In this document: in pieces, positions 23,691 to 56,252 of the stretch
Layout: every line of letters starts with the position of its first letter
How positions within the stretch are numbered: the stretch's first letter is position 1
Source: an uncultured Candidatus Saccharibacteria bacterium
GTDB taxonomy: Bacteria > Patescibacteriota > Saccharimonadia > Saccharimonadales > JAGQMS01
DNA: 64,000 bases
Assembly (NCBI GenBank): GCA_964554485.1
Contig: CAZKOX010000002.1
Coordinates: 21,146 to 85,145 of the forward strand
Direction: 5' to 3'
Notes under the pieces: generated by a model
Database searches by the model: none
The model's input: the letters and a program-made list of their open reading frames with translations, nothing else
What the model was told of the DNA's origin: nothing
Program-made: the position numbers and the translations under genes

Positions 23691-23712
23691 CCCAGCCAAG
23701 CTGGGCTTTTTT
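23691..23712 (+). terminator. Intrinsic terminator after the pilin array
   Basis: CCCAGC caa GCTGGG followed by CTTTTTT. Confidence 0.6.
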
Positions 23713-23716
23713 GATG

Positions 23717-23846
23717 CCTCTTGGCTATTTTCAGTCTATTCGGTCCAGTACTCTCCGCTGTACAGCGGATCTACGTACATTCGTACGTCTCGTTCCGTCC
23801 TTCCCGAATATGCCGAAACTACCTCAAGCGCAGAATCCGTGGGGTG
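23717..23846. repeat. Intergenic structured repeat, copy A (core module only, with an extra CCGCTGTACAGCGG hairpin)
   Basis: Shares CTTGG(C/T)(C/T)ATTTTCAG .. GTCCAGTACTC .. ACGTAC-n-GTACGTC .. TCCGT(G/C)CTTCC .. CCGAAACT(G/-)ACCT(A/C)AG(C/T)GCA with copies at 26664-26819 and 48103-48260, all in the same orientation. Confidence 0.7.
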
Positions 23847-23863
23847 AAGTTCTTAAAACAAAT

Positions 23864-25172: not shown

Positions 25173-25340
25173 TGGCGGAAGAGGTGGGGTAATGCACATC
25201 AATCTGTGCGCCGAGCTTCTCGGGCAACAGACTGATGACCGAACCGCATTGGGTTCTAATCCCATTCTTTCAGTAGAAAGACTATGACCGATACCCTTTA
25301 GGTTCGGACATACTCTTCCTGGCGGAAGAGGTGGGGTTCG
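25173..25340 (-). repeat. Two tandem direct repeats of the tRNA-Ser(CGA) 3' end, bracketing a 147-nt tRNA-end-flanked segment
   Basis: TGGCGGAAGAGGTGGGGT at 25173-25190 (18 nt) and TGGCGGAAGAGGTGGGGTTCG at 25320-25340 (21 nt) are identical to tRNA positions 25491-25511. ACTCTTCC at 25312-25319 copies the tRNA 5' acceptor half. Confidence 0.7.
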
Positions 25341-25490: not shown

Positions 25491-25581
25491 TGGCGGAAGA
25501 GGTGGGGTTCGAACCCACGTTGGTTTTTACACCAAACACGATTTCGAATCGTGCGCCTTCAACCAGCTCAGCCACTCTTCC
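25491..25581 (-). tRNA. tRNA-Ser (anticodon CGA), class II, CCA encoded
   Basis: Manual fold: acceptor GGAAGAG/CTCTTCC, anticodon arm CACGA-TTCGAAA-TCGTG, long variable arm, T arm GTGGG-TTCGAAC-CCCAC, then GCCA. Confidence 0.85.
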
Positions 25582-26663: not shown

Positions 26664-26819
26664 GCTAAGCCTGCTCTTTGGCGGAGCCAAAGACACCGCT
26701 TAGCTTCTTGGCCATTTTCAGTCCTTGAAGTCCAGTACTCGCATCAACGTACTATTTGTACGTCTTGCTCCGTGCTTCCTTCAAGTACCGAAACTGACCT
26801 AAGTGCAAAATGCGTGGGC
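26664..26819. repeat. Intergenic structured repeat, copy B (5' hairpin module plus core module)
   Basis: Outer stem GCTAAGC (26664-26670) / GCTTAGC (26698-26704). Inner hairpin CTTTGGC-GGA-GCCAAAG (26676-26692). The core is as in copies A and C. Confidence 0.7.
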
Positions 26820-26875
26820 TAAATAATAAAGACTTCATTTTTAAGAGGTCATGAGATAATATAGTCCGGAAGCAC

Positions 26876-52639: not shown

Positions 52640-52989
52640 TGGAACCACTTAATCATAAAACGGTCGAAGATTACGTTTTGAGCTTTCCGAACTCTCGTAG
52701 GGATTTTCCTTTTGGCGATGAGGTTGCGGTATACAAAACAAAAATTGGCGACGAAGAAAAAATGTATGCATTGATTCAAGAAGAGAAGTTACCGGTTCGA
52801 ATTAGCCTAAAATGCGATCCTCAGCTGTCAGAGCTATTGCGTGAAAAATATGAAACTGTCATGCCTGGATATCATCTGAACAAAAAGCATTGGAATACGA
52901 TTGTGCTAACCGGACAAATGCCCTGGGAAGAAGTAAAGAGTCTAATACTACTAAGCTACAATCTTGTTACTGAGCGGACGAATAATTAA
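52639..52989 (+). CDS. MmcQ/YjbR-family protein
   Basis: 116 aa, with a ..PGYHLNKKHWNTI.. motif. Confidence 0.6.
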   Translation: MEPLNHKTVEDYVLSFPNSRRDFPFGDEVAVYKTKIGDEEKMYALIQEEKLPVRISLKCDPQLSELLREKYETVMPGYHLNKKHWNTIVLTGQMPWEEVKSLILLSYNLVTERTNN

Positions 52990-53581
52990 AGGGTAGAAGC
53001 TCAGCATGAGCATTAAATACCCTGATTGTGTTCTTTATTTTTGTGTTGCTTTGGGCCATAAAAACATCTGCTAGCCTTTCTTCGTAGCTTACTAATTTAT
53101 CGTCGAATAAACTACTATAAACCGAATCAAAGTCGTTTGCCGTTCTAGCTTCTTCAAGTTTTGCGTCATTGCTCTCGGTCTTATATTTTGAGAGATCCGT
53201 TTCAACCAGCTTCACATCGAGGCTGCTAATCATTTTTTTGGTCTTTATAAGGTCGCTTAGGATTGTTAAATAGCTGGTTTGAGCAGATCCACGAACATTG
53301 GTGTTAACGCTATTTTTTACGCCAATTTCGGCCACTCTAACAAGTTCTGTTTGATAAGCCGCAAGGTCGATAAGCTCGGCAGATCCACGCCGATTTTTTG
53401 CTTGAATAACAGACATAAAAACGAAAATCAGAACAATCAATACTATTCCCGCAATAATAATAGTTAGTGTGCGTTGGGCCTTAGAATTGCTAGTTCTAAA
53501 ACGTCTTGGTTTGGGAGGAGTTGACTGCAAAATAAAATCTAGATCTGGTGGAGTGGTAGAGGTTGGCTGTTGCGGCTGCAT
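52967..53581 (-). CDS. Hypothetical membrane-anchored protein
   Basis: 204 aa. Pro/Thr-rich N-terminus and a single TM (LTIIIAGIVLIVLIFVFMSVI). Confidence 0.45.
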   Translation of the reverse strand: MQPQQPTSTTPPDLDFILQSTPPKPRRFRTSNSKAQRTLTIIIAGIVLIVLIFVFMSVIQAKNRRGSAELIDLAAYQTELVRVAEIGVKNSVNTNVRGSAQTSYLTILSDLIKTKKMISSLDVKLVETDLSKYKTESNDAKLEEARTANDFDSVYSSLFDDKLVSYEERLADVFMAQSNTKIKNTIRVFNAHAELLPFNYSSAQ

Positions 53582-53635
53582 TGTTTAAGCATAACTGATT
53601 AGTCTGGGCGGTGCAAAATATGGCTATAAAAGAAA

Positions 53636-54335
53636 GTCCCCCGTGCGCCTATGAGGGCGCACGGGGGTGAGCTGACGGAGCAAGGCAAGTATCACTCATC
53701 AACGCAGTTTCAGCTGCGGAGACTGGTCGTTAGCGGCGACCAGTCACGTCAGGTTATTTTTGGCTCAATCCGCTTATTAGCAGAGAGCAGTGAAGGTATT
53801 GATCTCGTAGTGAGTCTTCGAGAACATCTCGACGATTTGGTCGAAATGTTTTGTCCGCTTAAGCGGACGGCTCGAAGGTCTACTACGAGATTGACCCCGG
53901 GTCTCTATCGAGACTCTGGCGGCGTCCATTCAAGGACCCGGGGTCTTGACCGGCAGCCAGCAGTAGGGCATTACTGCGGCGCCAGTGATTTTAAGGGGAG
54001 CAAGTTAATGCTCAACCTTTATTGAAAGACCATGGAGGTCCGGCGGGTTGCCCCGCCGAACCTCCTCTTAGGGCGTAGGAGTTCGAAGTAGGTTGCCCTA
54101 CATCGCTTGCTTCGCCTTCGCTGGACCGACGCACACTGGCTTGGGTTTAAAGCCCATGGGCGCGGGTATCTATTCCGCACCATTCCCAGCTGTCGGTGTC
54201 TCTGTGTTTTCGCCTTGCGGCGAGGCAGGGAGTCCGCATGGGTCTCCCACTGGCTCCGCTCGTCAGTTCCAGCCCAGGCGAACCCGGGGTTGACGGTAGA
54301 CGAACGGAGTATGTTTGCTACTTTGTAGCGATATC
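53636..54335. ncRNA. Candidate large structured non-coding element (GC-rich, hairpin-dense, class unknown); strand uncertain, with a terminator-like end on the minus strand
   Basis: About 57% GC against AT-rich flanks, and only implausible Arg-rich ORFs. Many perfect local stems, for example GACCCCGGGTC/GACCCGGGGTC (53893-53946), GACTGGTCG/CGACCAGTC (53721-53745), GGAGGTCCGGCGGG ttgc CCCGCCGAACCTCC (54035-54066), and CCCCCGTGCGCC/GGCGCACGGGGG (53638-53667) followed on the minus strand by ACTTTCTTTTAT. Confidence 0.35.
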
Positions 54336-54509
54336 GAACCTCTGGGGTTAATCCAAAAATACCATAACGCTACAAAGAAGACCGCCTTTTTTAAAAAAAT
54401 ACCTTCACTTGTAAAATAACACCTACAAAAAAGTAGGTAAGTAATGTTATACCAGATTACGTGTTAGAATGTCAACATAAATAGTTAATGTTTTACAGAG
54501 GTAGCAATT

Positions 54510-56252
54510 TTGGACGCGGTTGAGGACATAAAAGCAAAGTTATCGATTGAGGAAGTGATTGGTGATTACCTCGAGCTTAAGCGTGCCGGGCGAAATTTAA
54601 AAGCCAATAGTCCCTTCAGCAACGAAAAAACACCTAGTTTCATGGTTAGCCCAGAAAAACAGATCTGGCACGACTTTTCTAGCAACCGCGGTGGCAACAT
54701 GTTTAGCTTTGTAATGGAGATGGAAGGGGTCGATTTTCGTGGAGCTTTGGAACTTCTTGCCCGTAAGGCCGGAATCGATCTAAGCCAATACAACCGTGGG
54801 CCAGATAACAGTCAGCGAAAAGCTAGATTATCTGAAGCATTAGAGCTTGCCACAAAGTACTTTCAACAAGCCTTGGTTAAATCGCCGTCGGCTCAAGACT
54901 ATTTGCTTAAAAAGCGTGGTTTTACAAAAAACACTCTAACAACCTTTCGACTTGGTTATTCACCGGACAGCACTGACGGCTTAGTATGGGCACTTAAAAA
55001 ACGCGGTTTTACAGAAGAAGAAATAAAAGCCGCCGGCCTAGGCACGCAGCGTTACAGCGGATTTTCAGATATGTTTCGGGGTCGAATTATGGTGCCGCTC
55101 AAAGATCCGCAAGGCGCGGTTATTGGGTTTACAGCTCGTATATTAATTGACGACCCTAATGCTCCAAAATATTTTAATACTCCACAAACACTTTTATACG
55201 ACAAAGGCCGACATATTTTTGGACTGTCGGAGGCTAAGCAGGCGATTCGCTCTAGCGGCTATGTAGTAATGGTTGAAGGTAATCTTGATGTAATTTCGAG
55301 CCATCAGGCCGGCGTGAAGCAGGTAATTGCCACGGCCGGCACGGCGCTGACTGACTATCATCTAAAAACTTTGTCGCGTTTTTCAGAAGATATTCGAATT
55401 GCATTTGACCAAGACGAAGCCGGTCTTCGGGCTACAGAACGAGCGATTGGAATGGCCGCCGCTGCCGGTATTCGATTGAGTGTTATCGACATCGAAGACG
55501 GCAAAGACCCCGACGAACTAGCCAGTAAAAATCCAAAGGCTTGGGCGGCAGCCGTTGATAAGCCAGTTTATGCCATGGACTGGTTGCGCCATAGGTACAT
55601 GAAGTTAAACGATATAACTTCTGCGTCAGGCAAGAAAAACTACACTTCACTAATGCTAAAAGTTATCTCAACCCTCCAAGATCCGGTTGAGCAAGAACAT
55701 TATCTTGATGCTCTAGCTAAAGATATTGATGCTAGTCGCTCGGCAATTCGTAGTAAGTACAGCCAATTTAAAGAAGGGGCAGAGAGGCGCTACAAACGAC
55801 CAAGAGTCGAACCGGTTCAATCTGGTCCCGATCCACACGTTTATCAAGACCATCTCCTTGCACTGTTAATCGGTTATCCGATAACTCGTCGGGTGCTTGA
55901 AACTATCGACAATGAGCCGGTTTTTGCCAGTCCTGAGCGTCAATTTGTATTTGAATATATTGCCCTGCATCCCCACGACAGTATTACCGACGTCCCAGAG
56001 GATTTGCAAAATACCACCGACTATGTGAAAATCCTCTTATTACTTGCAGAAGAGCTATATGCGACGTTTGACGCCAATGAGCGTCTCAGAGAGGCACACG
56101 ACCTCGTTCGTCACCTGCAGAAGGATTATAAAAAGTCAGAGATAAACAAACTTAGTGCTGCTGTTCGCGACGCCGAAGAACGTGGCGACGAAAAAGAAGT
56201 AGCGAAGCTGTTGGGCAGTTTTAACAACCTCTTAAAACAAGACAAGGAGTAA
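54510..56252 (+). CDS. dnaG: DNA primase
   Basis: 580 aa. Zinc-ribbon region ([24 protein letters not shown]) and a TOPRIM domain ([17 protein letters not shown]). Confidence 0.9.

Follow-up and report, generated by a model that had tools for sequence, protein, structure and literature searches.

To our knowledge, very few large structured bacterial RNAs of unknown function are known. The OLE (RF01071), GOLLD, ROOL, raiA and HEARO RNAs are the closest described systems to the element considered here, and they have in common with it a length of several hundred nucleotides (nt), a very stable multi-helix fold with GNRA caps, a guanine and cytosine (G+C) content that is high relative to the genome, confinement to a single lineage, and a promoter and terminator of their own. 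The element is a non-coding region between a gene for a protein of 204 amino acids (aa) and the dnaG-rpoD operon, in a 64-kb stretch of DNA from an uncultured Candidatus Saccharibacteria bacterium. This whole stretch is called the window below, and the L-numbered loci are the related sequences compared with it. The region is considered to be probably, if far from certainly, an independent gene for a large structured non-coding RNA (ncRNA) of about 810 nt, encoded on the minus strand in a Saccharimonadales lineage. Such an RNA has most likely not been described before and would represent a new family of large structured bacterial RNA. The boundaries of the element, its strand, its conserved helices, and the insertions of modules and of a miniature inverted-repeat transposable element (MITE) into it have been established by computation.

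Prediction of the transcription unit

The region at 53636-54335 is the G+C maximum of the window (56.7% vs 44.3% across the whole of it). No open reading frame (ORF) of at least 60 aa has been found on its minus strand, and those on the plus strand comprise 124, 66 and 73 aa. The z-score of its minimum free energy (MFE) against dinucleotide shuffles is -13.8 for the minus strand and -8.8 for the plus strand, and none of 20 shuffles equalled its folding stability. An earlier note on this DNA had counted 34 G+C in the 60 nt at 54061-54120, a figure reproduced on recounting; its account of the ORFs on both strands agrees with the ORF listing, and the perfect stems that it listed are all present in the sequence, their arm pairs being recovered by a repeat search (Table 1). 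It was also right in placing the region between a hypothetical gene (204 aa; 52967-53581, minus strand) and dnaG-rpoD (54510, 56255). Its coordinates are slightly short, the true unit extending from about 53626 to 54441, with the promoter reaching 54475. Two origins had been offered for the region, a large structured RNA or a decayed foreign insert. The first is backed by comparative evidence, and the second is unsupported for the region as a whole, as neither a protein remnant nor similarity to phage, plasmid or viral sequences has been detected.

A decayed protein gene or a foreign fragment of high G+C has in fact been largely refuted already and keeps next to no probability. The G+C content (57% vs 44% for the window) and the existence of the 124-aa plus-strand ORF could be explained in this way, whereas a Pfam search with seven ORFs gave no match for those of the region, and phmmer with the 124-aa ORF against 1.84 billion representative proteins returned the ORF itself and a weak match of 26 residues (E=1.4e-4). 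Furthermore, the differences between close relatives preserve the hairpins and include insertions and deletions that are not multiples of three, and no similarity was revealed by blastn against phages and plasmids or by pattern scans of viral contigs.

A single minus-strand transcription unit, directed away from dnaG, is the best reading of the region. RNA polymerase would start at the promoter at 54475-54446 and stop at the terminator at 53667-53626. The predicted promoter is of a near-consensus sigma-70 type: TTGACA has been identified at the equivalent place in 13 of 13 related sequences (11 relatives plus L107 and L108), about 35 nt from the dnaG start and pointing away from it, and a -10-like hexamer follows 17-18 nt past it in 13 related sequences. 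The latter takes the form TGGTATAAC in the genus, TATAAT in L100, L102, L107 and L108, and TATAGT in L001; TATAAC was absent from the promoter-scan listing because the hexamer ends in C. Within the genus alignment, ATCTGGTATAACA (7 sequences) and GTCAAC are both invariant amid variable surroundings. The RNA promoter and the probable dnaG promoter stand back to back and overlap by one base, and the outgroups have TACAAT at the position equivalent to the dnaG -10. Because the two promoters overlap, synthesis of the RNA may limit dnaG-rpoD transcription through promoter competition.

The terminator is found in every relative as a paired G+C-rich stem with a U-run, the stem sequence being different in each species, and the terminator pairs given by RNAalifold include two-sided changes. 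In the window, the U-run ACTTTCTTTT comes after the 12-bp stem on the minus strand, and the stem has been scored as terminator-like; it marks the 3' end, in keeping with the earlier proposal of a terminator at this stem. A conserved promoter and a conserved terminator of its own are features of an independent ncRNA gene. The genomes of Saccharibacteria and of other members of the candidate phyla radiation (CPR) are tiny, so that keeping about 0.8 kb of non-coding DNA behind a consensus-like promoter probably carries a cost.

The terminator lies about 45 nt upstream of the 204-aa gene, on the same strand, and this arrangement is kept in all relatives. Both facts would also suit a long cis-regulatory leader of that gene, with a signal-dependent stop or read-through at 53667-53626. 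This explanation is nevertheless regarded as improbable: (i) the conserved TATGCT, which gives the downstream gene a -10-like element of its own, is also present in Saccharibacteria that lack the structured region; (ii) no conserved aptamer-like core and no riboswitch or T-box match in Rfam have been found; (iii) family members range in length from about 555 to 1019 nt and tolerate mobile insertions; (iv) no antiterminator pairing was noticed on reading the sequence, and none was computed. TATGCT sits within GTTATGCTTAA, which is conserved upstream of the 204-aa gene, and since these elements precede the gene also where the RNA or the long gap is absent, the gene seems to have its own promoter. 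It is worth noting that the 204-aa gene has no Shine-Dalgarno sequence (53582-53593, minus strand); its mRNA is probably leaderless.

Table 1. Features of the putative ncRNA locus and its borders, with positions in the window
Feature	Position	Strand	Remarks
Predicted transcript	53626..54441	-	About 810 nt, from a putative start near 54440 to the U-tract; from promoter and terminator positions
-35 of RNA promoter, TTGACA	54470..54475	-	Shares base 54470 with the dnaG plus-strand -10
Extended -10 of RNA promoter, TGG-TATAAC (TGGTATAAC)	54446..54454 (hexamer 54451-54446)	-	18 nt past the -35
Probable dnaG -10, TAGAAT	54465..54470	+	Preceded by TGn; TAnAAT with TGn kept in relatives
P1, 5' hairpin	54420..54439	-	UACCUAC-U6-GUAGGUG; U-rich run next
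Long-range helix, 5' strand AGUGAAGGUAUU	54398..54409	-	Pairs with 53789-53800 in the window MFE fold
P2 stem CUUUGUAGCG/CGCUACAAAG	54321..54378	-	Conserved internal loops, variable apical hairpin
P3, 11-bp stem CUCCGUUCGUC/GACGAGCGGAG	54254..54309	-	Encloses UUCG-capped hairpin; read from sequences
Module A, 124 nt	54030..54153	-	Direct repeats CCATGG at edges; holds GCAA-capped 14-bp hairpin 54034-54065
14-nt arms GGAGGTCCGGCGGG/CCCGCCGAACCTCC	54034-54065		Repeat search
Hairpin GACCCCGGGUC/GACCCGGGGUC with inner hairpin	53893..53945	-	Repeat search
11/11-bp stem GACCCCGGGTC/GACCCGGGGTC	53893-53903 / 53935-53945		Repeat search
MITE-like insertion, 87 nt	53803..53889		Imperfect terminal inverted repeats, no ORF
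21-nt arms	53802-53822 / 53871-53891		Repeat search
Start of 3' domain: AUCUUCGC, H1, GGUGUGAC	53740..53803	-	H1 is GCUC-U-CUGCU...AGCGG-AUU-GAGC
Long-range helix, 3' strand AAUACCUUCACU	53789..53800	-	Partner of 54398-54409
Stem GACTGGTCG/CGACCAGTC	Inside 53714-53752		Repeat search
3' tail hairpins	53678..53745	-	H2 53721-53745, H3 53703-53718, H4 53678-53697 (GAGU...GCUC)
12/12-bp stem	53638-53649 / 53656-53667		Repeat search
Intrinsic terminator	53626..53667	-	12-bp G+C-rich stem 53638-53667, then U-tract 53626-53637
TATGCT, -10-like	53588..53593	-	Precedes the start codon (ATG) of the 204-aa gene by 6 nt; element of the neighbour, outside the RNA

Strand of the predicted RNA

Five independent signals indicate the minus strand; (i) the minus-strand MFE is below that of the plus strand in 7 of 9 homologues, and for the predicted transcript the values are -378 and -367 kcal/mol, respectively; (ii) among predicted hairpins, GNRA or UNCG caps close 22 of 153 in the minus-strand folds and 3 of 139 in the plus-strand folds (Fisher p=2e-4, or 4e-6 with loops of 4 nt only); (iii) the unpaired minus-strand positions are 39.5% A and 11.6% G, and A-rich, G-poor unpaired bases are the usual bias of structured RNAs; (iv) all 10 sequences have a U·G pair in P1, and the long-range helix has a U·G pair in 7 and a G·U pair in 4 of 8 sequences, each of which would turn into a C·A mismatch if the plus strand were read; (v) promoter and terminator are both oriented on the minus strand.

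Fold and conserved helices

The predicted RNA would have a closed architecture, in which P1 is followed by a long-range helix that encloses P2, P3 and further G+C-rich helices, many of them with GNRA or UUCG caps. Outside this closure, a 3' tail of four hairpins would lead to the terminator. Alignment of the related regions has revealed compensatory changes in the conserved helices, a mark of ncRNA genes that is of modest power with 7-10 related sequences.

P1 and P2 taken together are paired in 95.5% of cases, compared with 30-47% when the partners are slid, and their covariation score was reached by 1 of 500 shuffles. The long-range helix measures 12-20 bp in the family and connects the 5' domain with the 3' domain. 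In a set of 8 species, 88.4% of its cells are paired vs 43-55% with slid partners, 7 of 500 shuffles reached its score, and its exchanges comprise AU<->GC and UA<->AU. The P2 stem hardly varies (UA->CG exchanges occur in L087 and L108), and its apical hairpins, as read from the sequences, vary in sequence and keep their pairing. Stems of the form CUCCR...YGGAG, analogous to P3, come after P2 in L104, L085 and L006. The inner hairpin at 53893-53945 has changed from GUCUC/GAGAC to GCCU/AGGC in L081, which is compensatory.

The motif at the start of the 3' domain (AUCUUCGC-H1-GGUGUGAC) is paired in 90.8% of cases (21-44% when slid), with four pairs changed on both sides. A covariance model of this motif, R1, scored 57 bits on the window (E=1.8e-10) and also detected all members of the genus and L001, and nothing else among 93 sources. 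In the 3' tail, the stems of H2-H4 are kept among species despite differing sequences, and the loop of H4 is GAAA in L081 and L089. For the 3' domain as a whole, RNAalifold gave 13 of 32 pairs changed on both sides. A GCAA-capped hairpin of 12-14 bp (54065-54034) recurs in L006, L085, L104 and L108 with differing stems. The JGI contig of L081 contains 10 N inside its GCAA/UCAC hairpin module (2403-2414, gap 595-604), and the hairpin is not comparable there.

A terminator-like score was also given on the minus strand to P1, which precedes a conserved U-rich run (GGUGUUUUUUAAC in relatives). Early attenuation or pausing is one role that P1 may have, and the same A/T-rich stretch, as DNA, could be an UP element of the dnaG promoter.

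Counterparts in relatives and the variable centre

Counterparts at this locus have been identified in relatives (DnaG 66-99% identical); they measure about 555-1019 nt within the genus, and that of L001 has 621 nt. In most Saccharibacteria, only about 60-300 nt separate the 204-aa gene from dnaG. This gap is far longer in the relatives of the window: 928 nt in the window itself, 726 nt in L089 (DnaG identity 99%), 1190 nt in L081 (96%), 672 nt in L088 (91%), about 1000 nt in L006 (90%), 1135 nt in L085 (90%), 358 nt in L103 (69%), 528 nt in L100 (67%) and 777 nt in L001 (66%). The window-type sequence is identical in four independent samples, and a fifth shows four differences; the contigs of this organism derive from SRR13225479, DRR784962, SRR33293569, ERZ4201044, JGI 3300045389 and JGI 3300048592. 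A metagenome scan with an alignment of the 204-aa protein returned only three loci. Over the Saccharimonadales clade (DnaG 66-99%), the ends are conserved and the centre is rebuilt fast by gain and loss of hairpin modules, which differ even among strains that are nearly identical. Module A is present in L081, which has an extra module B of 240 nt. The two modules are presence/absence polymorphisms with short direct repeats at their edges. L089 lacks both module A and the 87-nt element at 53803-53889, and its 3' domain is only 74% identical.

At the same locus, L100, L102 and L103 (DnaG 67-70%) have a shorter RNA of 242-407 nt, which may or may not be homologous to that of the window. A putative, conserved H-type pseudoknot, ACGG-nAAGAn-AAGYUC-CCGU-loop-GARCUU, was observed in these three (L100 2646-2665, L102 25-44 and L103 1629-1648, minus strand), with a compensatory U-A -> C-G change. 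The pseudoknot was sought in the genus of the window and not found there.

The MITE-like element

The extended helix at 53803-53889, which the earlier note had counted among the stems of the region, does exist, but it is no original part of the RNA: on sequence features it is a MITE-like mobile element, whose site is empty in close relatives. Its arms of about 19-21 nt are 81% complementary, a 5-bp direct repeat, ATTGA, flanks it (53798-53802 and 53890-53894), and the site is uninterrupted in L081 and L089. Terminal inverted repeats, target-site duplication and a polymorphism of filled and empty sites, three features expected of MITEs, are present.

Related copies with the same ends and other interiors occupy a second site, beside the promoter -35. 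In L081 this site reads GTCAAC / 84 nt / GTCAAC / 45 nt / GTCAAC, with two tandem copies (2828-2910, 2923-2954), and in L108 (591-701) and L109 it reads GTTGAC / about 117 nt / GTTGAC; it is empty in the window, L089, L085, L006, L087 and L088. Members of the family are 45, 84, 87 and about 117 nt long. They share the ends GTAGTAGACYTTCG...CGAARRCTCACTAC (minus-strand reading) and target duplications of 5-6 bp at (A/G)TTGA(C), and every copy has the same orientation. Three insertion sites are known, all inside this 1-kb locus; a second copy was found neither in the 64-kb window nor in viral contigs. In two species the insertion lies precisely at the TTGACA that forms the -35 of the RNA promoter and thus in the 5' untranslated region of dnaG. 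An integron attC site was considered for the 87-nt element and rejected, as the core sites do not fit and there is neither an integrase nor cassettes.

The insertions raise the question of selfish DNA. The spacer could be filled with selfish palindromic sequences, the promoter and terminator driving an incidental transcript or tuning dnaG-rpoD, and the body of the RNA being functionless. A MITE-like element with target duplication and empty sites, modules A and B (240 nt, L081) that come and go between short direct repeats, a centre almost without sequence conservation between species, the short gap of most Saccharibacteria and the overlap of the RNA -35 with the dnaG -10 would all agree with such an origin. 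It would leave unexplained the strand-specific GNRA/UUCG caps, the A-rich and G-poor loops and the G·U pairs that are possible on one strand only, as well as the long-range helix, the near-invariant P2 and the conserved 3' tail; moreover, no module is copied elsewhere in the 64-kb window, and the sequence is stable across five samples. Selfish DNA is therefore held to be unlikely, though it is the most serious competitor of an RNA gene. Even so, the locus would still be a clear case, in a CPR genome, of a MITE whose insertion at a -35 box is target-specific.

Neighbouring genes

By its DnaG homologues, the window belongs to Candidatus Saccharimonadales (Saccharibacteria, CPR). The local gene order is RNase T-like exonuclease (+), YjbR (+), the 204-aa gene (-), the non-coding gap, dnaG (+) and rpoD (+). 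This order is general in Saccharibacteria, and the 204-aa gene is also found in species without the RNA. Its product is a single-pass membrane protein with only a sub-threshold match in Pfam, to DUF6377.

Searches against known RNAs and rejected candidates

At the gathering score, Rfam 15 detected only five tRNAs in the window, and ARAGORN likewise found five tRNAs and no transfer-messenger RNA (tmRNA). With the limit relaxed to E<=10 at 53400-54600, the best match was flg-Rhizobiales, at 29 bits against a threshold of 55, and a search of 8 homologous loci at E<=1 gave nothing relevant. No assignment to a known family has thus been obtained for the region or for these loci, and the earlier view that it is not RNase P RNA, tmRNA, signal recognition particle RNA or a group II intron is borne out by Rfam and ARAGORN. 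In the literature searched, no description of such an RNA was found in Saccharibacteria or other CPR bacteria.

Four further candidates have been rejected. An RNase P RNA suggested by the plus-strand string AAAGAAAGTCC was dismissed, the string being the terminator U-tract plus stem and unconserved in relatives. A hammerhead core suggested by CGAUGAGCGAAAGCUC in relatives lacks the CUGANGA...GAAA arrangement and is negative in Rfam. A CsrB-like protein sponge does not fit loops that are not GGA-rich, and a replication origin does not fit the cumulative GC-skew minimum of the window, which lies near 33.6 kb, away from the region.

Evaluation of the proposed RNA gene

Several points weigh against an independent RNA gene. 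The distribution is narrow: in 75 other Saccharibacteria loci, R1 gave no match. The evidence of covariation is drawn from 7-10 related sequences, with a shuffle control that makes no correction for their relatedness. When the MFE pairs of the whole molecule were counted in three close relatives, L081 showed 24 changed pairs kept vs 20 broken, a mildly favourable result. L089 is without module A at a DnaG identity of 99%. Little of the centre is conserved: blastn among species at about 90% DnaG identity aligns only the ends, and nhmmer with the region against 80 Saccharibacteria dnaG loci found short motifs only, and even a representative species of 90% DnaG identity gave no similarity. Most of the genus has TATAAC as its -10 hexamer, with a non-canonical final C. 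For the RNA, its start, its 3' end and its abundance are inferred quantities, and the neighbouring genes give no clue to its function.

These points notwithstanding, the independent RNA gene is the reading preferred here. We infer that the RNA is made, is stable and acts as an RNA, the best guess being a stable trans-acting scaffold or the RNA of a ribonucleoprotein (RNP). If this is true, the RNA would be a new target for structural and functional study, and a natural case of a big RNA that tolerates, and perhaps grows by, the insertion of hairpin modules and a mobile element. The promoter overlap suggests a testable link to the expression of the primase and the main sigma factor.

Other non-coding elements of the window

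Two paralogous non-coding elements of about 130 nt (23705-23850 and 26700-26825) flank the tRNA cluster of the window. They share 80% column identity, are strongly structured (z -4.5 to -7) and have no Rfam match; possibly they form a second small RNA family of a new type. The sequence TGGCGGAAGAGGTGGGGT occurs three times exactly (25173-25190, 25320-25337 and 25491-25508), at a spacing of 147 and 171 nt, in a G+C-rich structured gap, and is the reverse complement of the 3' end of tRNA-Ser(CGA) (25491-25581, minus strand). These copies resemble tandem att-type scars left by elements that had integrated there, at the tRNA gene.

Comparison with known systems

The RNA of the window differs from OLE, GOLLD, ROOL, raiA and HEARO in giving no match to their Rfam models (RF01071 included), in its far less conserved centre and in its tolerance of MITE insertion. 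OLE, we take it, lies directly upstream of a membrane-protein gene on the same strand, as does the RNA described here; unlike in OLE, the neighbouring 204-aa membrane protein is general to Saccharibacteria and is not OapA. The phage or tRNA-cluster context of GOLLD and ROOL is likewise missing.

With RNase P RNA, tmRNA and 6S RNA the element shares a strong promoter, a terminator, a helix closing the 5' to the 3' regions and a high G+C content in an A+T-rich genome. It differs from these RNAs in having no Rfam or ARAGORN match; the conserved regions of RNase P are missing, and in contrast to 6S RNA, it is far longer and more branched. The rpoD neighbour would suit a 6S-like role, which is speculation. 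Most Saccharibacteria lack the RNA, so that it does not qualify as a universal housekeeping RNA.

The 87-nt element resembles MITEs in the lack of an ORF, the imperfect inverted repeats of about 19 nt, the 5-bp duplication, the filled and empty sites and the variable interiors. It departs from them in that only three sites are known, with ATTGA and, at the promoter -35, GTTGAC as targets, and in that the 64-kb window holds a single copy.

A tentative and rather doubtful proposal goes further and sees here a new class of ornate RNA, restricted to a single Saccharimonadales lineage. It would have a fixed frame of P1, long-range helix, P2 and 3' tail, and an interior rebuilt through capture and loss of GNRA-capped modules and MITEs. 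Its promoter would be interlocked with that of dnaG-rpoD, and the RNA would possibly be an RNP scaffold or a regulator linked to replication and transcription. Set beside the ornate RNAs described so far, the unusual trait of this RNA is its rapid modular turnover, with a MITE inside the RNA itself.

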